From contig CAVZJB010000017.1 of assembly GCA_963775425.1 (NCBI GenBank), forward strand, positions 384,001 through 448,000: 64,000 bases of DNA, read 5' to 3'. Origin of the DNA: an uncultured delta proteobacterium (GTDB taxonomy: Bacteria > Myxococcota > UBA727 > VGSZ01). The notes under the pieces are model-generated. The model did not search any database, was not told the origin of the DNA, and saw only the letters and a list, made by a program, of their open reading frames with translations. Positions within the stretch are counted from its first letter, which is position 1. Each line of letters opens with the position of its first letter. Positions 4,595-39,596 of the stretch are shown here, piece after piece. Both the position numbers and the translations under genes were made by a program.

Positions 4595-4679
4595 CCGCCG
4601 CCTCCGCACGGGAGCGGGCAGCGTTCGCGCGCGCGCGTGTGTCGCTCGTGTGTGGCACGCCGCGTGCGTCGACGCAGGC

Positions 4680-5438
4680 ATGCCGCGCACCGCCACACCA
4701 TTCGCCCTCGCCATCGCGGTCGCCGCCGCCGCCCTCGGGGCGTGCGCGCCCGACGAGCTCGCTCGCGCGCCGCTGCGCATCGACCTCGGCGACGTCTTCC
4801 CCGAGGCGGCCTCTTTCAGCACGGGCGCAGGCACGCCCACGGACGTTCCCCTCAGCGGATCCTTCGACGTCGACCGTCAGCCCGACGACTGCACCGGCCT
4901 CGAGGACGGCACCGTCACGTTCGACACCGCCAGCGTGGTCTTTCAGGGCGGCTATCACGGCCTGCGCGCAGGCAGCTCCGCGCTCGGCGCCCCGGACGCC
5001 CCGACGTGGACCTGCGACCCGCGCTTCGAGGGTGTCATCGACGACGTCGAAGTGCCGGACGAAGCCCGCGACGGCGTCTTCGCCGTCGACGCCGGCGGCA
5101 TGACGGCGCGCTACGTGGGGCGAAACCTGATCGCGCGGCACCACGTCGTCGCCGACGGGCCCGCCGTCCGGCTCGCGGATCGCTGGCGCACGCGCTTCCA
5201 CCTGGAGCCTGCCACCGACGTGCTCGACGGCGCCGTCGCCGGCGAGCCGAACATGGACGTCCTCGCCGTCGGCGTCGACGACGGCGACCTCTTCGTCGAC
5301 GTCGCCCCCGGCGTCCCCAACGGAGGGGCGGTGATCACCGTGGCGTTCCACGTCGACGAGGTCGCCTGCGACGGCTTCGCGTCCTGCGCGGTGTCGGTGA
5401 CCCACACCGAGTGGGTGGTCGCCGACAGCGGCCTGTGA
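4680..5438 (+). CDS. Hypothetical lipoprotein (acidic, beta-rich)
   Basis: Signal peptide with lipobox ALGAC. Confidence 0.75.
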   Translation: MPRTATPFALAIAVAAAALGACAPDELARAPLRIDLGDVFPEAASFSTGAGTPTDVPLSGSFDVDRQPDDCTGLEDGTVTFDTASVVFQGGYHGLRAGSSALGAPDAPTWTCDPRFEGVIDDVEVPDEARDGVFAVDAGGMTARYVGRNLIARHHVVADGPAVRLADRWRTRFHLEPATDVLDGAVAGEPNMDVLAVGVDDGDLFVDVAPGVPNGGAVITVAFHVDEVACDGFASCAVSVTHTEWVVADSGL

Positions 5439-5462
5439 TCTTGCCGCCACCGGGGCGTGGTC

Positions 5463-6428
5463 TCACGCGCGCGCCGGCGCCGCCCCCCGAACGTTCACGC
5501 CGTCGAGGAAGCGCAGCACCGCCGCCCCCCACGCGCCGGGATCCTCGAGCATCGGGTAGTGCCCGACGCCGGGCAGGCGCGTGTGCTCGGCGTTCGGGAT
5601 CTCACGAGCGAGCTGGTCACCGATGGCCCGCACGGCGACGGGGTCGTCGTCGGCCCACAGCACGTGCGCTGGGACGTCGAGGCGCTCGAGCGCACCGACG
5701 AAGCGCTGCATGAAGCGCATGCGCTCATCGAGGTATTGCGAGACCGCCGGCAGCACCGCGCGCCCGCCGTTGTGCTCGAGCGCGAGGTACATCGCGTCGA
5801 GGTGCTCGGCTTCGACGGGCCGGCGCAGGATGCGACGCATGTTGCGCACGAAGAGGCCGCGCGTGGCGAAGCGGACGTAGAGCGGCCCAAGGCGCGAGCG
5901 CAGGATCTTCTGCGCGATGCGGAGGTGGGCGAGCTCCAGGTGGACGCTGCCGTTGGTGAGCGTGACGCTCCCCACCTCGAGGGGGAGCAGGCCGCGCTCC
6001 CGCCGCGCGAGGACCTCGGTGCACACGCTGGTTCCGTAGTCGTGCGCGAGCAGGTGCATGCGCTCGACGCCGAGCGAGCGCCACAGCTCGACGGCGACGT
6101 CGGCTTGCTCCATCAACGAGTAGCCGTACCCGCGCGCGGGTTTGTCCGACAGCCCGAAGCCGATGTGGTCGTGGACGATGACCCGAAAGCGCGCCGCGAG
6201 CGCGTCGACGACGAGGGCGAAGTCGCCGGACCACGAGGGGAAGCCGTGCAGGATGCACAGCGCCGGCCGCTCGCCCGCGGCCGGGGCGCCGGTGTCGACG
6301 ACGAAGACGCGCTTGCGCTCGACCTCGACGAGCCTGCCGCGCGCGCGCCAGTCCTCGAACGGCCCGCGTGACGACGCCGGGTGCGCCTGTGCGGCGCCGG
6401 GGACGGCCGCGTCGCCGCGGTCAGCCAC
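5463..6428 (-). CDS. Alpha/beta hydrolase, epoxide hydrolase/MEST-like
   Basis: HGFP oxyanion motif, GFGLSDKP, AHDYG nucleophile Asp, GHYP catalytic His; overlaps the moaA stop. Confidence 0.9.
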   Translation of the reverse strand: MADRGDAAVPGAAQAHPASSRGPFEDWRARGRLVEVERKRVFVVDTGAPAAGERPALCILHGFPSWSGDFALVVDALAARFRVIVHDHIGFGLSDKPARGYGYSLMEQADVAVELWRSLGVERMHLLAHDYGTSVCTEVLARRERGLLPLEVGSVTLTNGSVHLELAHLRIAQKILRSRLGPLYVRFATRGLFVRNMRRILRRPVEAEHLDAMYLALEHNGGRAVLPAVSQYLDERMRFMQRFVGALERLDVPAHVLWADDDPVAVRAIGDQLAREIPNAEHTRLPGVGHYPMLEDPGAWGAAVLRFLDGVNVRGAAPARA

Positions 6429-10259: not shown

Positions 10260-12386
10260 TCACTGCACCGAGCTCTGCAACGTGTACGCGCCCCCGTCGC
10301 CGGCCCCGTAGCCGTCGACCAGGACGAACCACAGACCGTCGCCGGCGCCGTCGCTTTGGAGGGTGGTCTCCACGTCGGAGCAGAGCTGTTGCCCCGGCTC
10401 GAGGTCGTCGTTGCACGCGCCCTGGTACGTGGGCCCCAGGCATGCCCCGTCGCGGACCTCGAGGACGGTGTCGAAGCCGGTGTCGGGGCTGCAGGTCCGA
10501 AGCGACGTCGCGTGCGCGCCCGGACACGTCGCGAAGTACCAGAGCTGGTCCGGCCCGTCCCCGCCGTCGGGGATCACGCACGAAGGCGCGGTGACGTTCT
10601 CGAGGCCGGTGCTGTCGCCGTGCGCCTCGCCCTGCGCGACGTCGAGGAGCGCCGCGTTGCTGCAGCCCGCCTGCTGCAGCTTGAACTGCACGTGGCCGGT
10701 GGCGCCCGCCTCCTTGGCCTTCACCACCGCCGTGTACGGCCCGGCCTCCATCACCCCGAGGAAGTGGCCGCCGCCCGCGGCGTCGCCGCAGCCGTCGTCG
10801 ACGCACAGCGCCTCGTCGGTGCACGCGTTGCCGCGGAAGACCGAGAGGGTGGTGTCGATGTCGGACCCGTAGGTGGACATGTACACGATGCCCGCCGTCG
10901 ACACGTCGAATTGGAAGAAGAGGTCGCCGCCGGCGCCGCCGCAGGACGGGGAGACGTCGCCGGCGTTGTCGGCGGTGATCTCGCCCTGGAAGAGGCCGGA
11001 GCCGTCGATGGTGTGGGCGGTCTTGCAGGTGGCGTTGTCGGTGAGCGGCGCGCAGCCGTCGTCGGGGACGCCGTCGCAGGACTCGTCGCGGCCGTTGCCG
11101 CAGATCTCGGTGGTCGGATCGCAGATGTTCGGGTCGTCGGGGAGCGTCACCGGCACGCGCACGACGTCGTTGGTGTAGTCGAGCTCGCCGAGGACGCGCG
11201 CCGGGTTCACCGCGACCTCGAGGACGTAGTCGCCGGCGGGCACCCCGGTGACGTCGATCCACTGGCAGTCGAGGTGCCGGCCGTAGGTGTCGGCCCAGCC
11301 GACGGAGATGCCCTGGTTTCCGCAGTCGAAGCGCGCGTTGCCCGCGTCCTGGTCGACGGGCTCGAGGTCCTCGAGGCAGAAGGCCTGCTTGTGGCCGGTG
11401 GCCGCCACGTCGCCGTCCTGCGTGAGCAGCCGGTAGTTCGCGTACTGATCGAAGTGGTAGTGCTGGTGGCACGGCGAGAAGTGGAAGAACGGGTTGGCCT
11501 CGGGCCGGCCGACGACGAGGTCGGCGTTGCCGTGGTTGGGCGTGGTGGTCGAGAAGTTCAGGTAGCGCCCCGAGCCCGGCGTGGCGCACGCCTCCTGCAC
11601 GTCGCACGCGTTGTCACCGAAGAACTGGTCGATGACGCGCACCGAGTCCGCGAGCACCTGCGTGTCGACAGTGAGGTCGGCCATCATGCAGGTGTCGTCG
11701 ACGCAATTGGAGGCGGGGCAGCACGCGCCGCCGCAGACGTCGTCGTGACAGACCATGTCCACGGTGACCACGGGCACCGTGATGCTGTTGTTGGAGCCGT
11801 CGCCGTCGAAGACGCCGTCGGGGTCCACGGTGAGGACGAGGCCGTAGTCACCGGGAGGGACGTCGGTGACGTCGAGGAGCGACGACGCCGTGAACGCGAT
11901 CGGCGCCGTACCGCCGGCGGCGGCGAGCGAAAAGCCGGGCTGCACGTCGAGCGGCCCTCCGGCGACGACGGTGCCGTCGCGCGCGACGAGCTTCCAGGTG
12001 ACGAAGCCGAGCAGGGCGTGGCCGCCGCCGCACGCGGCGTCGCCGAGGTGGACGTTGGTGGCCCCCACGCTGAAGTCCCGCGTGCCGTTGTTGCGCATGA
12101 CGAGGTCGAAGCCCATGAGCGCGCGGATGCCGCCCTGCTCGACGGTGCCCGCGGTGACGTCGCAGTCGTCGTCGGCGAAGCGGCGGAAGGAGAAGTGCAC
12201 GCTGGGGGCGACGTCGGTGACGTCGAGGACGAGGTCGACGTCGGCGGGCGGCCGCTCGCCTTCTCCCTCCTCGCCCTCGCCCTCGCCCTCGCCTTCGCCG
12301 CTCGACGTCGAGGGCGCGGGGCAGCCGGCGAGCGCGGCGCCGGCGGCGAGGGTGACGACGAGGAAGAGGCGGGGCGGGCGCGTCAT
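10260..12386 (-). CDS. Lysyl oxidase family lipoprotein (degenerate LOX-like domain + intact LOX domain + Cys-rich/PPC-like domains)
   Basis: Lipobox LAGC, short GE linker, CHQHYH Cu motif, GHKQAFCLED, WADTYGRHLDCQWIDVTGVPAGDY...VNP. Confidence 0.9.
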   Translation of the reverse strand: MTRPPRLFLVVTLAAGAALAGCPAPSTSSGEGEGEGEGEEGEGERPPADVDLVLDVTDVAPSVHFSFRRFADDDCDVTAGTVEQGGIRALMGFDLVMRNNGTRDFSVGATNVHLGDAACGGGHALLGFVTWKLVARDGTVVAGGPLDVQPGFSLAAAGGTAPIAFTASSLLDVTDVPPGDYGLVLTVDPDGVFDGDGSNNSITVPVVTVDMVCHDDVCGGACCPASNCVDDTCMMADLTVDTQVLADSVRVIDQFFGDNACDVQEACATPGSGRYLNFSTTTPNHGNADLVVGRPEANPFFHFSPCHQHYHFDQYANYRLLTQDGDVAATGHKQAFCLEDLEPVDQDAGNARFDCGNQGISVGWADTYGRHLDCQWIDVTGVPAGDYVLEVAVNPARVLGELDYTNDVVRVPVTLPDDPNICDPTTEICGNGRDESCDGVPDDGCAPLTDNATCKTAHTIDGSGLFQGEITADNAGDVSPSCGGAGGDLFFQFDVSTAGIVYMSTYGSDIDTTLSVFRGNACTDEALCVDDGCGDAAGGGHFLGVMEAGPYTAVVKAKEAGATGHVQFKLQQAGCSNAALLDVAQGEAHGDSTGLENVTAPSCVIPDGGDGPDQLWYFATCPGAHATSLRTCSPDTGFDTVLEVRDGACLGPTYQGACNDDLEPGQQLCSDVETTLQSDGAGDGLWFVLVDGYGAGDGGAYTLQSSVQ

Positions 12387-15738: not shown

Positions 15739-16418
15739 ATGGAGCAGTCGATCCACGCGACGAACGCGCTGCGGTTGATGTCGCGGCCGCTGCAGTCCTG
15801 CCCGGTGCGCGAGCGGTTCCACTCGCAGAAGTCCTTGCCGAGCTGCGCGTACTCGGCGCCGAGCCACAACAGGCCCACCTTCTTCAGGTCCTCGTCGCCG
15901 GCGAACTTCTCGTTCAAGTGGTCCATGAGCTTCTGCGCGCGGGCCTGCGACAGTTGCGTGTTGTAATCCTTGTCCCCCTCGGGGGACGCGCGCGCCACGA
16001 CGAAGAAGAACGAAGCGCCGCGCTTCTCCGACCAGCTCTTGTCGATCTCCGAGAGGGCGCCGTCGTCGAGGTCGGACTTGTCCTGATCGAATTGGATGAT
16101 GTGCGCGCGGTCTTTCAGCGGCTGGAACAGCGCGTTGAAGTCGTCGCCCGTGAGGGCCGCGACGCTCTTGGCGTCGGCGGGCTTGCAGCCGCGCGCGCCG
16201 TTTTCGAGGAGGCCGCAGGCGCCGGCCACACGGCGCACGACCTGTTTGAGCTGCATGGTGCAGTAGGAGCTCTCCGCCGCGGACGCGATGGGGACGTCGG
16301 AGGCGGCGTCGGTGGAGCCCGCCAGACGCTCGCCGGCGGCCTTCTCGCTGACGACGACGAACGCGAGCGGCAGGACCAGGCAGCCGATGAAGAGGGCGAG
16401 GGAGCGGATGTCGTTCAT
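15735..16418 (-). CDS. OmpA-like (peptidoglycan-binding) domain protein, Cys-rich
   Basis: IQFDQDKSDL, ASPEGDKDYNTQLSQARA, INRS; N-terminal hydrophobic helix; ATGA overlaps on both sides. Confidence 0.7.
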   Translation of the reverse strand: MNDIRSLALFIGCLVLPLAFVVVSEKAAGERLAGSTDAASDVPIASAAESSYCTMQLKQVVRRVAGACGLLENGARGCKPADAKSVAALTGDDFNALFQPLKDRAHIIQFDQDKSDLDDGALSEIDKSWSEKRGASFFFVVARASPEGDKDYNTQLSQARAQKLMDHLNEKFAGDEDLKKVGLLWLGAEYAQLGKDFCEWNRSRTGQDCSGRDINRSAFVAWIDCSI

Positions 16419-17689
16419 CGCCGCCTCCCGCCGCTGCTGCCCTCGAGCATCTTGTTCACCGTGTACTCGAGGCCGAGGTCGGTGTCCTCGTCGCAGACGC
16501 GCTTGTCCCCGATGAAGAGCTGCGGCGTGAGCACGGGCAAGGCGTTGGCCACCGCCCACCGCAGGCTGCGGTTCACGGTGTTCTTGATCTTGGGGGAGCC
16601 CAGACACCCCTTCAAGCGCGGGAACTGCTGCTCCAGGCGCTGCCGGATCCTGGCGTCGTCCTGCTTGGCGAGGTCGCGCAGCTCCTCCTGGTGCTCGAAG
16701 GCGTAGTCGAGGACCTCCTCGGCGGACCCCGTGTCACACAACATGGCCTCGCTGACCGCGCAGGCGCCGGGGTGCACGGACTCTTTCACCATCCAGTTGC
16801 ACTTGGCGTCGAGCGGGAAGAGGACGGCCCTGATGTCGAGCTTCTCGTAGAGGTCACTGGCGCGCATGCGCGCGTCGAAGCCTTTGCAGGCGGGGCACAG
16901 CGGGTCCACGACGGCGACGGCGGGCGTGCCGTGGCCGCGCCCGAGGGGGATCATGATGCCGGCCTCCTCCTTCTTCACGAGCGTGCCGCAGCCCGTGCTG
17001 CTCTTGGGCGAAGCGGGCGCGAACATGACGTAGAAGATGGCGAGCACGGCGACGTAGAGCACGCCCTCGCCGAACTGCTTGGCGTACTGCGGCGTCGGCA
17101 GTTGCGCTGACGGCGCCGGCGCCGCCTTCATGTGCGCGAGGATGGCGCACAGGAGGAGCGTCGCGGACGAGAAGTAGATGCCGATGCAGAGCTTGCAGAC
17201 CGCCCCGATCTTCGTGACGGCGATGGTCGCGAAGATGACGGACATCAACGCGGGGAGAAGCGCGGCGGCGACGAGGTAGAGCGACTCGTGCTTGGTGAAC
17301 GGCTTGTTGGACAGGAGCGTGCGGGAGAAGTGCATGACCATGTAGGCGAACACGGCGACGGCGAGGAGCGAGATGGGGAGGCCGCCCCAGAGTGAGTCGC
17401 GGAACATGGAGCTGTACGGCGACATCATGACGGTGCGGCAGCCGCTCTCCCCGATCTCGGCGCCGGCGCCGGGGATGAAGGAGCAGTGGATCGAGTGCAC
17501 CTGGCGGTCGAGGTGGCTGATGAAGTCGCTCGTGGAGACGCTCGCGAACAGGACGCCGGCGATGGAGGCGACCACGGCGAGGATGAGGGCGCCGGGCTTC
17601 GAGCCGCCCGTGGGCGGGGTCGGGGGGTAGGGCGGATAGGGCGAGCCGCCGTCGGGGCGCTGGTCATCGAACGACATGGGCGTGGCCAT
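16415..17689 (-). CDS. VKOR-DsbA/thioredoxin fusion
   Basis: VKOR loop cysteines (HCSF...GCRTVMMSPYS), TM CKLC motif, C-terminal DPLCPAC and TP cis-Pro. Confidence 0.88.
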   Translation of the reverse strand: MATPMSFDDQRPDGGSPYPPYPPTPPTGGSKPGALILAVVASIAGVLFASVSTSDFISHLDRQVHSIHCSFIPGAGAEIGESGCRTVMMSPYSSMFRDSLWGGLPISLLAVAVFAYMVMHFSRTLLSNKPFTKHESLYLVAAALLPALMSVIFATIAVTKIGAVCKLCIGIYFSSATLLLCAILAHMKAAPAPSAQLPTPQYAKQFGEGVLYVAVLAIFYVMFAPASPKSSTGCGTLVKKEEAGIMIPLGRGHGTPAVAVVDPLCPACKGFDARMRASDLYEKLDIRAVLFPLDAKCNWMVKESVHPGACAVSEAMLCDTGSAEEVLDYAFEHQEELRDLAKQDDARIRQRLEQQFPRLKGCLGSPKIKNTVNRSLRWAVANALPVLTPQLFIGDKRVCDEDTDLGLEYTVNKMLEGSSGGRRR

Positions 17690-17876
17690 CGGAAACCTCT
17701 GCGTCGCATCTTTGCGCAAATGCGATCCCGCCGCGAGTGAAGGGACGGACGCCGTAACCGCCTGCCAGCACGCAGGATTCCGCCGGTGGCACCTCCTCCT
17801 ACATCGATCCACCAGCGACGTCGCGCGCACATGTGCCGATAACTCCCGAGATCACCCGACGACCTCAGGGGAGCAC

Positions 17877-20800
17877 ATGTCCATTCGCCGCGCCGACGCA
17901 CCTGCCAACCCGCCCCGCACGAACGCCCTCGCCGAGCGCGAAGAGAATCAGGAGGCCCCGGAGTCGCCGGAGCCGAAGAGCACCGTCGCCGAGCCGCCGC
18001 CGCCGCCGCCGCGGAGCGTCGACGTCGCCTCGCGCAACCGCGTCCGCGCGGCTGCTCTCGCCAACGAAGCGCGCGTGCAGACCCAGGTGCAGGGCGAGGA
18101 GATCACGGGCAACAAAGAGCTCGATCAGCTCCTGAACCAACTCCCCCCCGACCTGCTCAGCATCGTGAAGAACCTCGCGCAGGCGCTGCGCAAGCTCGCC
18201 GACGCCATCGAGAAACAGGCGGGCGCGAAGCCGCAGGACACGGGGACGAATTCCAAGCCCCGTGGCGACGTCCGGACCCCTCAGGCCACCGCACCTCCCG
18301 CCAACAACGCCACCGCCCCCTCCGACGTCGAACAGCTCCTCGAACCCTCGCAAGACGACGCCGACCGCAGGAACGCGAACGGCGCAAACGGCGCAAACAA
18401 CGTCCGCCGCGGTCTCGCCACCAACCCCAAGGCCACGAACCTCGCCGAGACGCCCGACACCGGCGCCAACGCGAACGCCACCCTCGCGACCAACGTCAAC
18501 GCGACCAATCTCGCGACCGACGCGAACGCCCTCGCCAACGTCAACGTCAACGTCGCCAACGCGAACCGCAACGCCAACGCAAACGCGAACGCGGCGAACC
18601 TCGCGACCGACGCCGACGCCACCAACCTCGCCAACGCGAACGTCGCCAACGCGAATCGCAACGCCAACGCAAACGCCAACGCCAACGCGACGAACCTCGC
18701 GACCGACGCCGACGCCACCAACCTCGCCAACGCGAACGTCGCCAACGCGAACCGCAACGCCAAGCCCAACGCCAACGCGACGAACCTCGCGACCGACGCC
18801 GACGCCACCAACCTCGCCAACGCGAACGTCGCCAACGCAAACCGCAACGCCAACGCCAACGCCAACGCCACGAACGCCAACGTCGCAAACCGCGTTGCCA
18901 ACGACGCCAACGCCGACGTCGCCAACATCGCCAACGCAAACGCAGACGCCAACGTCGCCAACGCAAACGCCAACATCGCAAACCGCGTTGCCAACGACGT
19001 CGCCAACAACGCCAACGCCAACGCCAACGCCAACGTCGCCAACGCCAACGCCAACGCCAACGCCAACGTCGCCAGCGCCAACCGGTCGACAACCGTCACC
19101 GACACGACCGCCGCGACGCCGTACACGGTCAAGAAGGGCGACACGATGTCGGCGATCGCGCGGCGCAACAGCGTCTCGCTGAAGAACCTCATCGACGCAA
19201 ACCCGCAGACGCGCGCGAACCCGAACCGCATCCGCGTCGGGCAGACGCTCAACATCCCGAACGCGAAGAAGGCGGCGCCCACGGAGCCGAGCCCGCGACC
19301 GACCACCACGGTGCCCACGCCGACGCCGCGAACGACCACCACCGCGCCTGCGCCGACGCCGCGAACGACCACCACCGCGCCCACGCCGCGCCCGACCCCC
19401 CGCGTGACGACGCCCACCCCGCACCCGACGACGACCACAGCGCCGACGCCGACGACGCGGCCGACGACGCGGCCCGCGACGACCCTGGACCCCAAGCCGA
19501 CGACGACGACGACCCTGGACCCCAAGCCGACGAGGACGACGACCCCGGACCCCAAGCCAACCGCGACGATTACCCCGAACCCCAAGCCGACGACAACGAC
19601 GACCCCGGACCCCAAGCCGACGACGACGACGACCCCGAACCCCAAGCCGACGACGACGACGACCCCGGACCCCAAGCCGACCGCGACAATCACCCCGGAC
19701 CCCAAGCCGACCGCGACGATCACCCCGGCCCCCAAGCCGACCGCGACGACGGCCCCCGCTCCCAAGCCCACGACGACGACGACTCCGGCGCCGAAGCCCA
19801 CGACAACCCGCCCGGCTCCCAAGCCCACGACGACGACGACACCCAATCCCAAGCCGGTGGTGGCGCCGCCGCTCCCGCCGCGCAAACCCGCGCCGCCTCC
19901 GGTCATGGAGCGGCGCTTCGAGACGCAAGGGACCTTCACCGACAAGGACGCGGCCCGCACCAACCTCGCCAACCGCACCTTCGCGCAGCTCAAGACCGCC
20001 GGGCTCCTGCCGGCGGACACCAAGCTCGACACGAAGCTCCCCGCGGACGTGCAGAAGCGCGTCGACCGCGACGCCGCGTTCGACGGGACCAAGCCGAAGA
20101 CCTACGGCGACCTCATGAAGTCGCTCGTCGGCGACGGCGACAAGGACGGCAAGCTCGACTTCGACACGCTCCAACTCAACGAGGTGCTGCCGAAGGCCAC
20201 GCAGCAAGGCATCCTCAAGGCGGTCACCGCCGACACGGCGCCCGCCGACATCGAAAAGACGCTCAAGGCGTCCGGAGCCGACGCCACCGCGGCGGCGGCG
20301 GCGGCCAACGACAAGAAGCTCAAGCTCGACGCCCCCGAGGGGTTCGGGCTCAAGGGCGAAAACAAGATCGACGAGGTTCAGCAGCAGACCCTGCTGCGCA
20401 CGGGCGTCATCTTCGCGGACAGCAACAAGAACGGGAAGCTCGACCCCACCGACAAGGTCAGCTTCCTCGACAAGGACGGCAGCGTTCGGGAGTCGACGTT
20501 CGGCGCGCTCTCACCGCAGCTCCAAAAGACCGTCAAGCTCAACGCCGCCACCGCCGAGGCCGCGCGCACCTACAACGACCGGCCCGTCGATTGGATGCGC
20601 AACCCCGACGGCAGCATCGCGACGGACGCCGACGGGAACAAGATGATCACCAACCGGGTGAAGTTCCCGCACTACAACCGCAAGACCGGCGAGAACGAAA
20701 AGGAAGCGGTCAACACGGACTTCTGGACCATCGACAGCGCCAACGTGCGCGGGCGCAACCAGACGTCGTGGAAGCTCAACGACGGCAAGACGCCGGCGGA

Positions 20801-22229
20801 GGCCGTCGACGACGTCCTCAGCGGCGCCGACAGCCCGAAGTACACCACCGAGTGCGCGCAGATGCGCGACGTCATGCGGCTCAAGGGCCTGCGCGACTAC
20901 TACACGAACGAGTACGGCAAGGACGAGGGATCCTTCCGCTTCAACGCGGAGTTCCCCAAGGACGCCGGTGAGCAGAAGAAGGCGCAGGGCTACCTCACGC
21001 GGCTCGACGCCTTCAAGAAGGCGAACCCCGGCAAAGGCTGGGACGACTTCCAAAAGCAGGAAGCGGCGCCCGCCGTGAAGTACGCGATGCAGATCAGCCG
21101 CCACGACGTGCTCAGCGGCACCGGCTCCGTCATCGCGCCGTGGCAGACCAGCTACAACGCCGGCGAGAGCGCCGCCGGCGACGCCGGCTACTTCCACAAC
21201 TACGGCGTGAGCGTCGAAGGCGTCCGCATCGGCTACGGCGGCGAGAACGTGCTCGACGTCGGCTTCGCCAAGAACCCGAAGACGGGCGAGATCGAGCGCC
21301 AGTTCTGGGGTCACCCCGGCGGCATCAAGGGCGAGAAGGCCTGGCAGGAGGAGCTCGGGACCGACGCGATCATGGCCAAGTCGGGCACCGACTTCCAGGA
21401 GTACTTCTCGGCGGAGGACGTGCAGCGCAAGATCGGCCAGGTCGTCGACAAGCAGACCAAGCGCATCGATGACCTCATCGCCAAGAAGCCCACCGCCGAC
21501 CAGCGCGAGAAGCTCGAGATCGATCGGGCGTTCCTGCAGAGCAGCGGGGACGCGCTCAGCGCGGTGACGTCACACATCGACGACAGCAAGCTCGATGCGG
21601 CCAAGGCGCTCTTGAAGGACGGCAAGGCCGACAAGCCGTCGGACATGAAGCCGCTCGCCAACAGCCTCGACGCGGACGGGAAGAAGCTGGCGGTCGCCGC
21701 CTTCGGCAAGCTGCCGGCGCAGGCCCAGGACGCGTTGGCGAAGATGATCGGCAAGGACAAAGCCAAGCTCAGCGACGACGAAAAGGCGCAGGCCGCGCTC
21801 TATGCGACGATGACCGACGGCGGCCACCTCACGCCTTCCAGCGAGAGCCTGCTGGCGACGTCCGTCGTCAACACCGGCGCGGCGTCGTACCTGAAGGCGG
21901 CCAACGCCAAGACCGCGGCGCCCGCGGGGCCGCTGCACTCGCGCGACGACTTCAACAAGTGGCTCGGCACGCCCGCCTTCGCGAAGTGGTACGAGCAGAA
22001 GACCGGGCAGAAGTGGACCGGCGGCAAGTCCGTCGACGACCTCAGCCACGACGAGGTGCAGAAGATCGTCGAGCTCGCGCTCCCGCAGACCAAGAACATG
22101 CGCACGGCGTACGTGAGGCTGAACGGCGGCACGCCGCAGTACGTCTCGTCGCAGCTCGCGACGCTCTTGAAGGACGGCAAGCTCGCCGCCGCCGAGTATT
22201 CGTCGGAGGGCACGTCAATTCCGCTGTGA
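17877..22229 (+). CDS. Giant LysM protein with low-complexity repeats and Tgl-like protein-glutamine gamma-glutamyltransferase domain
   Basis: GGGGAG RBS; LysM at ~19122-19260 (YTVKKGDTMSAIA...NPNRIRVGQTLNIP); NTDFW, YTTECA, RFNAEF, GDAGYFHN, GENV, FWGH in the Bacillus Tgl order. Confidence 0.85.
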   Translation: MSIRRADAPANPPRTNALAEREENQEAPESPEPKSTVAEPPPPPPRSVDVASRNRVRAAALANEARVQTQVQGEEITGNKELDQLLNQLPPDLLSIVKNLAQALRKLADAIEKQAGAKPQDTGTNSKPRGDVRTPQATAPPANNATAPSDVEQLLEPSQDDADRRNANGANGANNVRRGLATNPKATNLAETPDTGANANATLATNVNATNLATDANALANVNVNVANANRNANANANAANLATDADATNLANANVANANRNANANANANATNLATDADATNLANANVANANRNAKPNANATNLATDADATNLANANVANANRNANANANATNANVANRVANDANADVANIANANADANVANANANIANRVANDVANNANANANANVANANANANANVASANRSTTVTDTTAATPYTVKKGDTMSAIARRNSVSLKNLIDANPQTRANPNRIRVGQTLNIPNAKKAAPTEPSPRPTTTVPTPTPRTTTTAPAPTPRTTTTAPTPRPTPRVTTPTPHPTTTTAPTPTTRPTTRPATTLDPKPTTTTTLDPKPTRTTTPDPKPTATITPNPKPTTTTTPDPKPTTTTTPNPKPTTTTTPDPKPTATITPDPKPTATITPAPKPTATTAPAPKPTTTTTPAPKPTTTRPAPKPTTTTTPNPKPVVAPPLPPRKPAPPPVMERRFETQGTFTDKDAARTNLANRTFAQLKTAGLLPADTKLDTKLPADVQKRVDRDAAFDGTKPKTYGDLMKSLVGDGDKDGKLDFDTLQLNEVLPKATQQGILKAVTADTAPADIEKTLKASGADATAAAAAANDKKLKLDAPEGFGLKGENKIDEVQQQTLLRTGVIFADSNKNGKLDPTDKVSFLDKDGSVRESTFGALSPQLQKTVKLNAATAEAARTYNDRPVDWMRNPDGSIATDADGNKMITNRVKFPHYNRKTGENEKEAVNTDFWTIDSANVRGRNQTSWKLNDGKTPAEAVDDVLSGADSPKYTTECAQMRDVMRLKGLRDYYTNEYGKDEGSFRFNAEFPKDAGEQKKAQGYLTRLDAFKKANPGKGWDDFQKQEAAPAVKYAMQISRHDVLSGTGSVIAPWQTSYNAGESAAGDAGYFHNYGVSVEGVRIGYGGENVLDVGFAKNPKTGEIERQFWGHPGGIKGEKAWQEELGTDAIMAKSGTDFQEYFSAEDVQRKIGQVVDKQTKRIDDLIAKKPTADQREKLEIDRAFLQSSGDALSAVTSHIDDSKLDAAKALLKDGKADKPSDMKPLANSLDADGKKLAVAAFGKLPAQAQDALAKMIGKDKAKLSDDEKAQAALYATMTDGGHLTPSSESLLATSVVNTGAASYLKAANAKTAAPAGPLHSRDDFNKWLGTPAFAKWYEQKTGQKWTGGKSVDDLSHDEVQKIVELALPQTKNMRTAYVRLNGGTPQYVSSQLATLLKDGKLAAAEYSSEGTSIPL
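18370..19085 (+). repeat. Asn/Ala-rich coding repeat with higher-order ~28-30-aa units
   Basis: gccaac/gcgaac hexamers; unit (T/A)NLATDADATNLANANVANANRN occurs three times plus degenerate copies. Confidence 0.9.
19280..19900 (+). repeat. Thr/Pro/Lys-rich coding repeat (mostly 30-bp units, TTTTTPDPKP)
   Basis: About 13 PKP-containing units downstream of LysM. Confidence 0.9.
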
Positions 22230-22239
22230 TGGGACCCGC

Positions 22240-23070
22240 ATGAGGTACGTTGTCGCCGCGCTCCTGCTCGCGGGGGGCGCCGCGAGGGTGCAGATGAGCG
22301 ACTTGAAGTACGACGTCGTCCTCCTCGGCGATCCCGTCGCCGCGCGCGACGACAAGCTGCGCGCCGTCGACGAGCTCACCGCCGCCGAGCTGCGGGCGGC
22401 GCCGCTCCTCGTCGAGCGCCTTCAGGACACGAGCGACGCAGTGTTCCTCGACGACTATCGCGTGGACACGGGCCCGCTGAACCCGGGCCCGCCGCTGTCC
22501 ACCACCACCACGGCTCGCTTCATGTGCGAGCTCATCCTGTACCGCATCATCGCTCCCGAGCCGAAGGAGACGTCGTTGGCGCTCGGCGCGCGCGCGAGCA
22601 AGACGGGGCTCGACGCCGTGCGCCCTGCGGGCGGGCTCGACTTCGAGGTTCCGCGCGCGCCCGTGGCCTGGGTGCGCGACTGGAGCGCGTACTGGGCCGC
22701 GCACAAAGGCGAGAGCCTCGACGTGATCCGGCGCGAGAGCGCCGCCGCCATCGACCGCCTCTGGCGCGAGGCCGCCCTCGCCACCACCGCGGCGCCTACG
22801 CCCGGGGCCGGGCCCGCGCCGCACCTGCCGTCTGCGACGACGGGCACGGCGGCAGCGCTCGCGTCGTCGACGGCGGGCATGCTGCTCGACGCGTGGCAGG
22901 ACCCGGCCCTCACGCCCGCACGCGAGGCCTACGTGAAGGCGCGCGCGATCTTTCGCGAGGCCGAGGGGGACGTCGGCAAGCGCAAGGCCGCGCGCAAGCA
23001 GCTCGAGGACATGGCCCACAAGGAGCCGCGGTTGCGCGTCCACGTCGAGCGCTGGCTCGCGAAGATTTGA
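22240..23070 (+). CDS. Hypothetical exported helical protein, probably co-transcribed with the Tgl-like gene
   Basis: 10 nt after the upstream stop; short hydrophobic N-terminus MRYVVAALLLAGG. Confidence 0.75.
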   Translation: MRYVVAALLLAGGAARVQMSDLKYDVVLLGDPVAARDDKLRAVDELTAAELRAAPLLVERLQDTSDAVFLDDYRVDTGPLNPGPPLSTTTTARFMCELILYRIIAPEPKETSLALGARASKTGLDAVRPAGGLDFEVPRAPVAWVRDWSAYWAAHKGESLDVIRRESAAAIDRLWREAALATTAAPTPGAGPAPHLPSATTGTAAALASSTAGMLLDAWQDPALTPAREAYVKARAIFREAEGDVGKRKAARKQLEDMAHKEPRLRVHVERWLAKI

Positions 23071-27581: not shown

Positions 27582-30500
27582 ATGGCGGCGTTGCCGACGA
27601 CGCCGACTCCGACCGATATCGGGAAGTACCGGATCCGCGGCGTCCTCGGGCGCGGCGGGATGGGCGTCGTGTACGACGCCGGCGACGACGAGCGCCGCGT
27701 CGCCGTCAAGACGGTCCTCGGCACCAAAAACAAGTTCGTCCACGCCGTGCGCCGCGAGATCCACGCGCTCGCGCGCCTCCGGCACCCGGGCGTCGTGGCC
27801 ATCGTCGACGAGGGCACGCACGAGGGCGCGCCCTGGTACGCGATGGAGTTCGTGGACGGGCTCACGCTGCGCGGCTGGGCGCGGGCGCTCGCCCTGCGCC
27901 ACACCGCCGCCGGCAAGGCGCCCGGCGGCGACGACGAGGGCGCGCCCGGCGGTGAGGCGTTCGTCGACGCGGTGTGCACCGGGCTCGGCACGGAGGGCGC
28001 CACGGTCACGCACGCGGGCGGCCTCATGGCGCCCATCGCCGGCACCGAGAGCTCCCGGGAGGAGACCACCGGCCGCCGCGGCCAACACACCGGCCTGCCC
28101 CTGCCCGCCGAGGCGCTGCCCGAGGTGCTCGTCGTCGCGCGCCGGCTGTGCCTGACGCTCGAGTACCTGCACAGCCGCGGCCTCGTGCACCGTGACCTCA
28201 AGCCCGACAACGTCATCGTCAAAGAGGGCGGGCGCCCGGTCGTGGTCGACTTCGGCCTCGTGTTCCACGCCACCGGCGTCGTCGGCCGCGAGAGCATCGA
28301 GGAGCTCGCGCTCCTCGGCGCGGGGACCGCGAGCTACATGGCGCCCGAGCAGGTCCGCGGCGACGGTGTCGACGCCCGCGCCGACCTCTACTCCCTCGGC
28401 GCCATCCTGTTCGAGCTCGTCACGGGCCATACGCCCTTCGAGGGCAATTCGAGCCTCGCGGTCTTGAACCAACACCTCAACGGCGAGACGCCGTCGCTCG
28501 CCGCGGCCTCGCCTTGGGTGCCGCCGGCGCTCGACGCGCTCGTGACGTCGCTGCTCGAAAAGAAGGCGCAGGACCGCCCGGCCAACGCCGCGCTGGTCGC
28601 CACGCGGCTCGCGGACATCGCGCGCGACGTCGCCGGCGCGGACGCAGCCGGCGACGCGGTCGGCGCCGACGACGGCGACGGCGGCTACGCGACGCCGCCG
28701 CGGCCGTTCCTGTACCGGCCCGCGCTCGCGGGACGCGCCGCGGTGCTCGACGCGCTCGACGACAGGCTCGCGCGCCTCGACAAGCGCGGCGACCGCGGCG
28801 GCGTGGTTTTGCTCGTGGGCCCGAGCGGCATCGGCAAGACGCGCGTGGCGCTCGAGGCGGCGCGGCGCGCGGCCGGCGACGGCGCCCTCGTGCTCGCCGG
28901 CGAAGCGAGCGCGCGCGGCGCGCGGCCGCTCGCGCCGCTGCGCAAGGTGCTGCAGGTGGTCTCCGAGAAGTGCACCGTCGGCGGCGCGCAGAAGACCACC
29001 ACGCTGGTCGGACAGAACGCAAAGATCTTCGCCGCCTACGAGCCGTCCTTCGTCGTCGTCCCCGGCTTCGAGCTGTTCCCCGATCCGGAGCCCCTGCCCG
29101 CCCCCGAGGCGCGCCGGCGCCTGCTCGCGTCGCTGCGCACCACCCTCGACAACCTCGCGCAGGAGCAGCCGCTCCTCGTCATCATCGACGACCTGCAGTG
29201 GGCCGACGAGCTCACGCTCGCGTTCCTCGATCACCTCGCCGCGTCCGAGGACGCCGACGCGCCGTTCATCGTCCTCGCCACCGTGCGCGCCGAGGAAGGC
29301 GAAGAGGTCGTGGAGGCGCTCGGAGATCACCCGCGCTCCTCCGTGCTCCGCCTCGATCGCCTGACGGAGGACGCCGTGCGCGAGATGATCGACGGCGCCC
29401 TCGGCGTCGCCGCGCCGGACGGCCTCGTCCAGCTCGTCGAGGAGCGCGCCGGCGGCGTCCCCTTCTGGGTCGGCGAGGTGCTCCACGCGGGCGTGCTCGC
29501 GCATTTGCTCGAGCGCGACGAGGCGGGCGCCTGGTGCACGCGCGACGCGCGCGCCGCCGCGCTCCCCTCCGCGCCCGCGGAGATCCTTGGCCTGCGCCTG
29601 AGCGCCGTCGGCGACGACGCGCGCGCCGTCCTCGACGCCGCCGCCGTCCTCGGCCGCGGCGCGCAGCCGGGAGTGGTGCAGGAGGTGAGCGGCATCGACG
29701 AGCTGCGCGCGCTCGAGGCCATGAGCGAGCTGCGCGCCGAGCAGATCCTGGACGACGACCCCGACGAGGGCGTGCGCTTCACCCACGACAAGCTCGCCGA
29801 GGCCGCCTACGCGCTGCTCGACGGCGAGCGGCGCGCGGCCCTGCACGGGCGCGCGGCCGCGGTGCTCGAGGCGCGGGCGCCCGCCGGCTCCGGCTCCGGC
29901 GCCGACGGCGGCGGCTCCGTGCGCGCGCCCTCCGACCTGAGGCCCGCGCTCGACGGGCCCGCGCTCGCCGAACAGCTCGCGTGGCACCACGAAAACGCCG
30001 GCGCCGCCGCCCGCGCCGTCGAGTACTGGCTCGTCGCCGGCGACGGCTCGCGCCGGCTCTCCGCGTTGAAAGACGCCGAGCGATGCTACGAGCGCGCCTG
30101 CGCCCTCCTCGAGAAGCTCGGCGACGTCGCGGGCCTGGCGAAGACGTTGATGAAGCTCGGCCTCGTGCACGCCGCCGTGTTCGACAGCGCCGGCGCGCAG
30201 CGCTCCTACCAGCGGGCGTTCTCGCTGTGGGCGGAGCTCGAGGGGACCGCGGCGGGGCTGTCGGCGCAGCCGCCGACGGCGCGCATCCGCGTCACCAACC
30301 AGCCAAAGAGCCTCGACCCCGCGCGCGCGTACGACTCCGACTCGCTCTTCGTCCAGGCGCAGCTCTTCGAGGGCCTCGTCGAGCTCGACGTCGACGCGAA
30401 CGTCCTGCCCGCCGCCGCCTCGAGCTGGGAGATCTCCGCCGACGGCCGCACCTGGCTCTTCCACATCCGCGACAACGCGCGGTGGAGCGACGGCACCCCG

Positions 30501-31793
30501 CTGCGCGCCGCAGACTTCGAGCTCGCGTGGAAGCGCGTGCTCGACCCGCGGCTGCGCTCACCGGTGGCGCAACTGCTGTACGTGCTCGACAACGGGCGCG
30601 CCTATCACGAGGGCAGCATCACCGACCCGCACCTCGTGGGCGTGCGCGCCACGGGCCAAAAGACCCTCGAGGTGAAGCTCGGCGCGCCGAGCGCCTACTT
30701 GCTGAACCTCTTGTCACACCCGTGCACGTTCCCCATCCCGGCCAAGACCTTCTTCGAGCACGGGCATCGCTGGACGGCGCCTGGGGTGATGGTCTCCAAC
30801 GGCGCCTTCGTGCTCGAGGAGCGCGAGCGCCTCCTCGTGCGCCTGCGCAGAAACCCGCTGTTCACCGGACGCGCCGAAGGCAACATCGCCGAGATCGAGG
30901 TGAACGCGTACCGCAACTACGGCGAGACGCTCGAGGCCTTCGACCAGGGCCACCTCGACATCCTCGACATGATCGCCGCCGACGCCGACGTCCTCGCGTC
31001 CGCGCGCGCGCGCACCAAGGCCGGCACCGGCGAGCTGCGGTTCCTGCCGCTGCACTCCACGCAGTACCTCGTGCTGCGCGCCGACCGCCCCCCGCTCGAC
31101 GACGAGCGCGTACGCAAGGCCCTCGCTCTCCTCATCGATCGCGACGCGCTCGCGGCCAAGCTCGCGGGCACGTCACACCTCGTCGCGCGCGGCGGGTTCA
31201 TCGCCACCGGCGTCGCCGGACACACGCCGTCGCTCGCGCTGCGCTTCGATCCCGAGCGCGCGGCGGCGCTCTTCGCCGAGGCGGGCTTTCAGACCCCCGG
31301 CGATCTGCCGCCGCTCGTGTGGCTGCACACCCACGGCCTCGGCGACACCACGCTCCTCGAGCTCGTGCGCGACGCGTGGGCGGCGTTCGGCGTGCGCATC
31401 ACCATGCGCGAGGTGGACTGGAACGACTACGAGCGCGCGCTCCGCGACGATCCCCCGCACGTCGTGCTCGGCGGTTGGATCGCGGACTACCCCGATCCGG
31501 ACACGTTCCTGCGCGCCGTGTTTCACTCGGTGGAGGGGGCGGAGAAGATCGGCTGGAGCGATCCGCGCTTCGATCAGCTCGTGGAGGAGGCGTCACGCAC
31601 AGCGGATCCGCGTGCGCGTGAGGAGCTCTACGGCGTCGCGGACCACATGCTCGTCGCCGACAAGGCGGTGGTGGTGCCGCTGAGCTATGGACAGAACCCG
31701 GTGCTGCTCAGAAAGAGCGTGCGCGCATTCCCGGGCGCAGGCTCGTACCTGCGCCCGATGAAGAACGTGGTGGTGGACGAGGGGACGTCCTGA
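27582..31793 (+). CDS. Ser/Thr kinase - AAA/STAND ATPase - TPR - OppA-like (family 5) solute-binding domain fusion
   Basis: GRGGMG, VAVK, HRDLKPDN, DFG, YMAPE; GPSGIGKT, IIDDLQWAD; SLDP, ARWSDGTPL, GWIADYPDP; start may be TTG 27591. Confidence 0.9.
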   Translation: MAALPTTPTPTDIGKYRIRGVLGRGGMGVVYDAGDDERRVAVKTVLGTKNKFVHAVRREIHALARLRHPGVVAIVDEGTHEGAPWYAMEFVDGLTLRGWARALALRHTAAGKAPGGDDEGAPGGEAFVDAVCTGLGTEGATVTHAGGLMAPIAGTESSREETTGRRGQHTGLPLPAEALPEVLVVARRLCLTLEYLHSRGLVHRDLKPDNVIVKEGGRPVVVDFGLVFHATGVVGRESIEELALLGAGTASYMAPEQVRGDGVDARADLYSLGAILFELVTGHTPFEGNSSLAVLNQHLNGETPSLAAASPWVPPALDALVTSLLEKKAQDRPANAALVATRLADIARDVAGADAAGDAVGADDGDGGYATPPRPFLYRPALAGRAAVLDALDDRLARLDKRGDRGGVVLLVGPSGIGKTRVALEAARRAAGDGALVLAGEASARGARPLAPLRKVLQVVSEKCTVGGAQKTTTLVGQNAKIFAAYEPSFVVVPGFELFPDPEPLPAPEARRRLLASLRTTLDNLAQEQPLLVIIDDLQWADELTLAFLDHLAASEDADAPFIVLATVRAEEGEEVVEALGDHPRSSVLRLDRLTEDAVREMIDGALGVAAPDGLVQLVEERAGGVPFWVGEVLHAGVLAHLLERDEAGAWCTRDARAAALPSAPAEILGLRLSAVGDDARAVLDAAAVLGRGAQPGVVQEVSGIDELRALEAMSELRAEQILDDDPDEGVRFTHDKLAEAAYALLDGERRAALHGRAAAVLEARAPAGSGSGADGGGSVRAPSDLRPALDGPALAEQLAWHHENAGAAARAVEYWLVAGDGSRRLSALKDAERCYERACALLEKLGDVAGLAKTLMKLGLVHAAVFDSAGAQRSYQRAFSLWAELEGTAAGLSAQPPTARIRVTNQPKSLDPARAYDSDSLFVQAQLFEGLVELDVDANVLPAAASSWEISADGRTWLFHIRDNARWSDGTPLRAADFELAWKRVLDPRLRSPVAQLLYVLDNGRAYHEGSITDPHLVGVRATGQKTLEVKLGAPSAYLLNLLSHPCTFPIPAKTFFEHGHRWTAPGVMVSNGAFVLEERERLLVRLRRNPLFTGRAEGNIAEIEVNAYRNYGETLEAFDQGHLDILDMIAADADVLASARARTKAGTGELRFLPLHSTQYLVLRADRPPLDDERVRKALALLIDRDALAAKLAGTSHLVARGGFIATGVAGHTPSLALRFDPERAAALFAEAGFQTPGDLPPLVWLHTHGLGDTTLLELVRDAWAAFGVRITMREVDWNDYERALRDDPPHVVLGGWIADYPDPDTFLRAVFHSVEGAEKIGWSDPRFDQLVEEASRTADPRAREELYGVADHMLVADKAVVVPLSYGQNPVLLRKSVRAFPGAGSYLRPMKNVVVDEGTS

Positions 31794-39551: not shown

Positions 39552-39596
39552 GGGTGGTCTTGACGACGACGGGGCGTCCCGCAACACAGAGCGGCG

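Follow-up and report, generated by a model that had tools for sequence, protein, structure and literature searches.

What kind of enzyme is carried by a 1450-residue protein whose front half is built of low-complexity sequence and a peptidoglycan-binding domain, and what might such an enzyme do? We address this question for one gene in a 64,000-nucleotide stretch of DNA from an uncultured delta proteobacterium (GenBank assembly GCA_963775425.1, contig CAVZJB010000017.1, positions 384,001 to 448,000; the whole stretch is called the window below), which has a G+C content of about 72% and comes from a genome of 8.26 Mb in 18 contigs with a completeness of 94.55%. A preliminary description of the window had read the product of this gene, P0001, as a giant LysM protein bearing a domain like Tgl, the transglutaminase of Bacillus spores. 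Judged by sequence comparison, residues ~881-1175 are a diverged but true homologue of Bacillus Tgl with the four named catalytic residues in place. Its fold is assigned on solid grounds, and the architecture is out of the ordinary, combining an insertion in the catalytic domain, an extra domain, a partner gene and a LysM anchor, the last of which is unique to P0001; function is read conditionally, from sequence and predicted structure.

The motifs from which the domain had been recognized are present in the translation, namely KLNAATAEAARTY (residues 887-899), NTDFW (946-950), WKLNDGKTPAEAVDDV (965-980), YTTECA (989-994, with Cys993 encoded at 20853), RFNAEF (1021-1026), GDAGYFHN (1101-1108), GENV (1122-1125, with Glu1123 encoded at 21243) and FWGH (1143-1146, with His1146 encoded at 21312). 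The B. subtilis Tgl strings NTTYW, YAFECA, GDCLYFKN, GENV and YFAH were found in the alignment to the Tgl chain 4p8i_A, and the numbering of Glu115, Cys116, Glu187 and His200 is as published. Two further strings ascribed to B. subtilis Tgl, KLRMNIVAAAKTL and KFNASF, lie outside the aligned segments.

Searches of Pfam and NCBIfam with P0001 itself returned LysM only, and its membership of the Tgl family therefore rests on its relatives. Ten of these were found by word index (two plus eight), and 31 cluster representatives were found at E <= 0.001 among 1.84 billion proteins; the family alignment holds 23 sequences, P0001 and 22 relatives. Scanned individually, all 22 relatives match the Pfam TGL family (PF20085; best E 5.1e-18), and the 23-sequence family profile finds just two chains in PDB at E <= 10, both of them Tgl (7c9j_A, 9.9e-11; 4p8i_A, 9.2e-7). 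The same profile aligns by hhalign with the canonical TGL proteins of the phylum at a probability of 99.9 and an E value of 1.1e-33 over 249 columns, and a profile of ten such canonical proteins matches the PDB Tgl chains at E 5.4e-53 and 6.5e-48. Two other searches gave candidates that we rejected: phmmer of residues 842-1450 against PDB gave a single chance match (Atg17, E 6.2), and a first family profile of nine rows ranked two helical proteins (E 0.0053 and 0.0072) over 7c9j_A (0.22), which we read as composition matches on the helical C-terminal part.

Predicted structure leads to the same family. A model of residues 842-1227 from a 23-row alignment (mean predicted local distance difference test score, pLDDT, 87.4; predicted template modelling score 0.84) gave two Foldseek matches in PDB at E <= 0.001, both of them Tgl: 7c9j, the Geobacillus stearothermophilus transglutaminase, at 5.3e-6 (template modelling score 0.68 on the target) and 4p8i_A, B. 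subtilis Tgl (4P8I/4PA5), at 1.4e-5 (0.62). A VIA-align run against 48,161 representative chains placed 7c9j_A at Z 19.1 (root-mean-square deviation 2.5 Å over 183 of 207 residues, 21% identity) and, on a second look, 4p8i_A at Z 18.2 (3.5 Å over 202 of 242 residues, 24% identity), with the next match after Tgl at Z 8.2 or 7.4 and on a terminal helical hairpin. The comparison with Tgl structures, which the preliminary description had set as the first of its two refuting tests, thus shows the same fold. The catalytic core of Tgl is described as being of the NlpC/P60 type in passages of PMC6490927 and PMC10318531; neither Pfam (PF00877) nor the rows listed by Foldseek or VIA gave NlpC/P60 for P0001, and a distant relation to that group is compatible with these results.

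In the profile alignment, the ECA of P0001 corresponds to Glu115-Cys116-Ala117 of Tgl, GENV to Gly186-Glu187-Asn188-Val189 and the His of WGH to His200, and equivalents of Cys116, Glu115, Glu187 and His200 are all present, as had been claimed. On these alignment equivalences, Cys993, Glu and His would cluster as in the Tgl active site. Cys and His are invariant in the 23 sequences, the Glu before the Cys is kept in 22 (one Asp) and the Glu of GEN likewise in 22 (one Gln); Cys993 is the sole Cys of P0001. According to passages of PMC6490927, Cys116 and Glu187 of Tgl form a dyad in which Glu115 is able to substitute, His200 lies at the mouth of the lysine-side tunnel, and the front entrance is formed by Trp149, Tyr171, Arg185 and Asn188 and the back by Phe69 and Trp184. 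The profile alignment pairs Tyr1105 with Tyr171 and Asn1124 with Asn188, puts Tyr1120 in place of Trp184, and lets the position of Trp149 fall in a region of P0001 that is taken over by an insertion; Phe69 is outside the aligned segments. From Cys993 to Gly1101 there are 108 residues, compared with 51 from Cys116 to Gly167 in Tgl, a net insertion of ~57 residues, and the extra part is predicted as confident helices (pLDDT 96-98).

To place this domain among related bacteria, we surveyed 400 other genomes of the same phylum, spanning 154 genera. In all likelihood this is the Myxococcota: a contig of G120, which belongs to the window's taxonomic family, is a record deposited as a Myxococcales metagenome-assembled genome, and the other two relative loci come from metagenome-assembled genomes labeled Deltaproteobacteria. 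This record and the G+C content of the window bear out a non-Firmicute host. Used as a query, the Tgl-like domain matched in 10 of the 400 genomes at E <= 0.001, and strongly in four only (G120, G068 with two copies, G061 and G032). Members of the diverged family share a region of calcium-loop-like sequence, the Tgl domain with its insertion and the C-terminal domain (the last absent in G032), and their N-terminal regions are mutually unrelated and contain no Pfam family. A shared N-terminal export motif was rejected: MSI[RK][RK] occurs in three proteins, but the first 110 residues of 16 members show no common motif.

The canonical form is more widespread, with Pfam TGL above its curated cut-off in 39 of the 400 genomes and 26 of the 154 genera, at 130-209 bits. 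These proteins include short forms of ~268 residues (L029-L034), which have no hydrophobic N-terminus and match the PDB Tgl chains at E 5e-53, and forms of 470-700 residues (L012-L017) with EF-hand-like loops ahead of the domain (in L013, TGL at E 5.7e-48 and EF-hand_5 at E 0.0013, under threshold). The occurrence of a Tgl-type domain outside Firmicutes, pointed out in the preliminary description, is therefore common enough in this phylum, and it is the architecture that surprises. Because the canonical proteins align with the family profile as described above and are spread over these 39 genomes, P0001 is placed, on sequence, in a diverged sister group to a Tgl lineage of fairly wide occurrence in the phylum. 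Their homology to P0001 is clear and includes a common stretch before the core, with the second of two DxDxDG loops; they have no signal peptides, and neither the insertion nor the C-terminal helical domain of P0001 is present in them. Six of ten sampled genomes of the window's taxonomic family (G026, G069, G074, G084, G129 and G131) have the canonical TGL gene without the diverged form, and the source genome (G000) and G120 have the diverged gene with its partner and no canonical one, so that, in this small sample of related genomes, one form may have replaced the other.

In the literature, a passage of PMC3533761 gives Tgl-like genes in bacilli and two clostridial species and none in non-spore-formers, and a passage of PMC6490927 also places Tgl in "other spore-forming bacteria." A literature search in which most subscription journals were not covered yielded no account of a LysM-Tgl architecture and nothing on Tgl-type enzymes in myxobacteria.

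Three features of this locus had been omitted from the earlier account: the helical insertion, a conserved C-terminal helical domain and a conserved partner gene. The C-terminal domain is all-helical in its model (pLDDT 89.5), and no fold was recognized for it, as Foldseek gave no match at E <= 0.001, the best VIA match (Z 7.8) lies inside the background of helical models and Atlas gave no usable match. It also stands alone in short proteins (P0026, P0029, P0031 and P0032). The gene that follows encodes P0037, which is 38% identical (E 1e-14) to the product of the gene directly downstream in L003. This partner lies directly downstream of the Tgl-like gene in the window, L001 and L003, its first candidate start following after 7-11 nt, and in G061 it begins 24 nt after the end of the Tgl-like gene on contig C41, where a contig break inside that gene leaves its remainder at the end of contig C2. 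In total, it is adjacent in four of the six genomes holding the diverged family, and a genome scan found no P0037-like gene in genomes with canonical TGL proteins. No Pfam family matches P0037, and Atlas gave only unnamed clusters with scores up to 0.90, a recognition under the usual mark.

In three runs, we predicted the complex of P0001 residues 842-1450 with partner residues 18-276. The median complex score was 0.79, compared with 0.53 for the best control; 58 of 80 solved complexes attain that mark, as do 2 of 110 mismatched pairs, counts that are rough since our own alignments were used. Contacts agreed by at least 60% over the three runs, the pLDDT of the partner was at least 78, and the predicted interface lies on residues 1175-1435 of P0001, which is the helical domain and not the catalytic one. 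These predictions support binding of P0037 to the C-terminal helical domain. A reading of the partner's N-terminus as a signal or lipoprotein peptide was withdrawn, as a hydrophobic N-terminus is missing from the orthologue in G061 and the internal ATG 22294, with GAGGG upstream, has a better ribosome-binding site than ATG 22240.

At the front end, the LysM domain matches PF01476 over its full profile (1-43 of 43) and above the gathering threshold (E 9.1e-13; 48.4 bits, cut-off 20.9), and its top NCBIfam match is a SafA-type model (E 2.2e-10), under that model's cut-off. A genome scan found four LysM genes in the source genome, the gene for P0001 among them. The LysM domain is flanked by two repetitive spacers, the first with ~6 tandem copies of a 90-93-nt period (18490-19068) and the second with 12.8 copies of a 30-nt period (19477-19856); this front end of LysM and spacers is unique to P0001 among the relatives found. 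Residues 1-170 have no second copy in their own genome, where the sole match is the region itself. Export signals were judged from Kyte-Doolittle means over 19 residues, and by this measure P0001 has neither a hydrophobic N-terminus nor a membrane segment (top mean 0.84). The earlier reading of one giant protein with LysM, two low-complexity stalks and no Sec-type N-terminus agrees with translation, Pfam, repeats and hydropathy alike.

Between the second spacer and the catalytic domain are the two DxDxDG loops, DGDKDGKLD (753-761) and DSNKNGKLD (848-856), both where the preliminary description had placed them. Their pattern is kept across the family, and the region of the second aligns by hhalign with the N-terminal part of the canonical Tgl proteins of the phylum. 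The description of these loops as EF-hand-like stands for the conserved pattern and finds no backing in Pfam, since no EF-hand or dockerin match exceeds threshold, and EF-hand_1, EF-hand_6 and EF-hand_5 appear at E 0.45-1.2 and ~10 bits against cut-offs of ~25.

The reading frame is free of stops throughout and stays open upstream to 17676. ATG 17877 is favored as the start because of a step in G+C at third codon positions (0.88-0.97 in each 300-nt block from 17877; 0.72 in 17676-17876), an AGGGGAG, like a ribosome-binding site, immediately 5' of it, and the occupation of the upstream DNA by a divergent gene. That gene (16415-17677, minus strand) belongs to the VKOR family (PF07884, E 4.3e-16), with ~200 nt between the likely starts. 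An internal start at Met677 was rejected, as no ribosome-binding site precedes ATG 19905; relatives of 731 residues are annotated from the equivalent position. A promoter scan returned no promoter-like sites, and seven terminator-like sites were found against a shuffled expectation of 8.6, that is, no excess. Among public sequencing runs, no RNA run with the gene region was found, and a DNA run containing 6% of the sampled words yielded six small pieces, of which two of 151 nt, possibly from the source sample, are identical to the window at 19853-20003 and 20025-20175. Table 1 gives the features of the locus.

Table 1. Features of the Tgl-like gene and its partner, in window coordinates, with the evidence for each.
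Feature	Position (nt)	Strand	Evidence
Tgl-like gene, 1450 aa (P0001)	17877..22229	+	Translation; G+C at third codon positions by block; AGGGGAG before ATG; Cys count
N-terminal polar region, residues 1-170, Pro/Ala-rich	17877..18386	+	Composition, hydropathy, own-genome search
Asn/Ala-rich repetitive spacer, residues ~171-405 (A 34%, N 32%)	18387..19091	+	Tandem repeats, composition
LysM peptidoglycan-binding domain, residues 416-461	19122..19259	+	Pfam PF01476
Thr/Pro-rich spacer, residues ~466-676 (T 38%, P 31%), ~13 ten-residue repeats	19272..19904	+	Repeats, composition
Start of conserved family core (MERRF, Met677) and two DxDxDG loops	19905..20516	+	Relatives' starts, family alignment
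Tgl-fold domain, residues ~881-1175, with Glu992-Cys993, Glu1123, His1146 and, between Cys993 and Gly1101, inserted helices	20517..21401	+	Profiles, alignment, model
Conserved all-helical C-terminal domain, residues ~1176-1450, putative partner docking site	21402..22226	+	Model, structure searches, complex prediction
Partner gene P0037, 276 aa from ATG 22240 (258 aa from ATG 22294)	22240..23070	+	Orthologues directly downstream in relatives

On balance, and by no wide measure of probability, we favor P0001 as a modular enzyme in which a diverged Tgl-type catalytic module is combined with a LysM tether, spacers, calcium loops and a partner docked at the C-terminal end. In such an enzyme Cys993 would be the nucleophile, Glu1123 and Glu992 would partner it in the dyad with partial redundancy, and the tunnel mouths would be lined by His1146, Tyr1105 and Asn1124. 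Cys993 would capture a glutamine of a protein at its gamma-carboxamide, forming a thioester to be resolved by the amine of a protein lysine, giving an isopeptide cross-link, or by water, giving deamidation. The single LysM domain would anchor the enzyme to peptidoglycan, the two spacers, one Asn/Ala-rich and one Thr/Pro-rich, would give its catalytic end a reach of tens of nanometres, and the DxDxDG loops would bind calcium. From the predicted interface, the partner would dock on the helical domain in a regulatory or holding role rather than as a plug of the active site. P0001 probably works outside the cytoplasm, because LysM, the Thr/Pro spacers, the calcium loops and the single Cys all point there, and it would then be exported independently of Sec and Tat or be set free by lysis; whether through an unrecognized export route or through lysis is a guess.

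Several results weigh against this picture of a tethered, partner-bound cross-linker. P0001 alone has no Pfam TGL match (threshold 23.7 bits), either as a whole protein at E <= 1 or as residues 842-1208, or 842-1227, at E <= 10, and a six-frame Pfam scan of the source genome gave no TGL match either. Substrate handling may differ from that of Tgl because the insertion replaces the region with Trp149, at the mouth of the glutamine-side tunnel. LysM was found in none of the 22 relatives scanned with Pfam, and peptidoglycan tethering would accordingly be peculiar to P0001 and not a family trait. An unrelated control protein reached the score of 0.53 on the same P0001 chain, and the partner gene was not found in two of the six family genomes (G401 and G032, that is, G032 and the genome of L002). 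With regard to location, P0001 is joined by its fetched relatives, 2 of 35 of which have weak hydrophobic stretches at most, and by the single-domain Tgl homologues of the phylum in lacking a signal peptide. The gene has no linked secretion system, nor are conserved secretion genes found around it, so that life in the cytoplasm is compatible with these data.

The alternative that survives best, unlikely as we hold it to be, makes P0001 an effector of interbacterial attack or predation, in which variable N-terminal regions serve delivery or targeting, the Tgl-fold module is toxic (as a deamidase, a cross-linker or a wall amidase) and the downstream gene encodes the immunity protein. The family has the layout of polymorphic toxins, in which a conserved C-terminal block follows N-terminal regions that are unrelated to one another. 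A large protein without a signal peptide, a small partner that is strictly adjacent and is predicted to bind, and a patchy spread, with strong matches in 4 of 400 genomes, would also fit such a system. LysM would aim the protein at peptidoglycan, and type VI amidase effectors use NlpC/P60-type folds (in a passage of PMC10318531). However, TssC was not found in the source genome at its completeness of 94.55%, none of the 23 sequences scanned has a Pfam delivery domain, and the predicted interface is on the helical C-terminal domain instead of the catalytic one; in addition, the partner was not found in two family genomes, and its export signal is doubtful for the reasons given above. The source genome has two FHIPEP genes, on contigs C9 (334853-348068) and C4 (94448-96469), with two flagellin genes beside one of them; together with the missing TssC, this is unexpected for a classical gliding myxobacterium.

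We give little credence to the view that P0001 is a wall hydrolase combining LysM with NlpC/P60, comparable to the D,L-endopeptidases of Bacillus, and cuts peptidoglycan stem peptides during its own cell's growth, division or sporulation. Wall hydrolases commonly join LysM to a papain-like domain, full invariance in the catalytic site is seen for Cys and His (23/23), and the core of Tgl is itself ascribed to NlpC/P60 (in passages of PMC6490927 and PMC10318531). Against these points, no NlpC/P60 match was found in Pfam, no structural neighbor but the two Tgl entries rises over background, P0001 retains the Glu pair specific to Tgl along with Tyr and Asn of the tunnel, and no relative has the LysM domain.

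There is also a slim chance that P0001 is made in the cytoplasm and comes into action only once sibling cells lyse, on a spore or matrix surface or on exposed peptidoglycan, and is switched on by external calcium. The lack of signal peptides in P0001, its relatives and the canonical Tgl of the phylum would fit, as would the conserved DxDxDG loops, and Bacillus Tgl is described as acting from the mother cell without export (in a passage of PMC6490927). This account is purely inferential, however, as no result links the gene to development or lysis and its neighbors are not conserved.

The weakest alternative, an artefactual fusion in which the true protein begins at Met677 and the N-terminal part was joined by an assembly or reading error in repetitive DNA, draws on the equivalent MERRY starts of P0004-P0007 and on the repetitive joining region, yet it is scarcely credible given the stop-free frame over 17877-22229 with coding-type third-position G+C throughout and LysM in the same frame, the lack of a ribosome-binding site before ATG 19905, an L001 frame that is likewise open and Pro/Ala-rich upstream of its own MERRY, and the identity of a 151-nt public-run piece across 19853-20003, though that piece is possibly from the source sample.

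A more specific version of the modular enzyme that we favor is itself improbable: a diderm, myxobacterium-like cell would export Tgl without a Sec signal, plant it by LysM and use it, in a calcium-dependent manner, to staple proteins to the sacculus or spore surface through the amines of stem-peptide diamino acids or surface proteins, comparable to a sortase, with the partner restraining the enzyme through the helical domain.

Compared with known systems, P0001 is closest to the Bacillus and Geobacillus enzymes, with which it shares a fold, the aligned residues Glu115-Cys116, Glu187, His200, Tyr171 and Asn188, and the absence of a signal peptide. Tgl is the smallest known transglutaminase; B. 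subtilis Tgl is a single domain of ~245 residues, whereas P0001 adds at least five further modules, including LysM, the spacers, the calcium-loop region and the helical C-terminal domain, as well as the partner gene, and falls under the Pfam threshold. The Bacillus LysM protein SafA recruits Tgl and becomes cross-linked by it (according to a passage of PMC6490927), so that LysM is joined to a Tgl system in both cases, but as separate proteins in Bacillus and as one chain in P0001, and the likeness of SafA to P0001 is confined to the LysM fold itself. The LysM plus NlpC/P60 endopeptidases and the type VI effectors (Tse1/Tae) resemble P0001 in a papain-like Cys core and in peptidoglycan targeting, and the effectors also in an adjacent partner gene; no match of either to P0001 rises above background, and the catalytic set of P0001 is of the Tgl type.

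The neighborhood of the gene is not shared with the relatives, as tblastn of 10 neighboring open reading frames (ORFs) of the window gave no match in L001-L003 and Pfam searches on 10 ORFs flanking the relatives found nothing recurrent. An ORF of 708 residues for a lysyl oxidase (PF01186, E 1.2e-38) lies at 10260-12386 on the minus strand, 5.5 kb upstream of the Tgl-like gene, and is not conserved beside the relatives; lysyl oxidases prepare protein cross-links and are uncommon in bacteria. In L003, a sigma-54 activator with an FHA domain (4668-6278, minus strand) lies divergently just upstream of the Tgl-like gene. Elsewhere in the window, the plus strand encodes a 1403-residue fusion of a protein kinase, an AAA_16/STAND ATPase and SBP_bac_5 (27582-31793; E 3.9e-68 for the last), with a weak TPR match under its cut-off, and a very long frame (40859-45937) of 1692 codons from stop to stop, with a third-position G+C of 0.92, whose 5' end is overlapped by the frame 39564-41225.

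Plainer homologues of Tgl are present in about one in ten of the sampled genomes of the phylum, and here, in a Gram-negative lineage of high G+C content, the Tgl catalytic machine appears to have been rebuilt as a large modular protein that has a peptidoglycan anchor of its own and a partner dedicated to it. If active, P0001 would serve as a natural experiment in the targeting and restraint of a cross-linker that is always active, and would offer a new scaffold for protein ligation that bears calcium loops, as well as a means by which myxobacteria might attach proteins covalently to their cell wall, matrix or spore surface. If the reading as a toxin with its immunity protein were true instead, the Tgl fold would join the weapons of interbacterial conflict.

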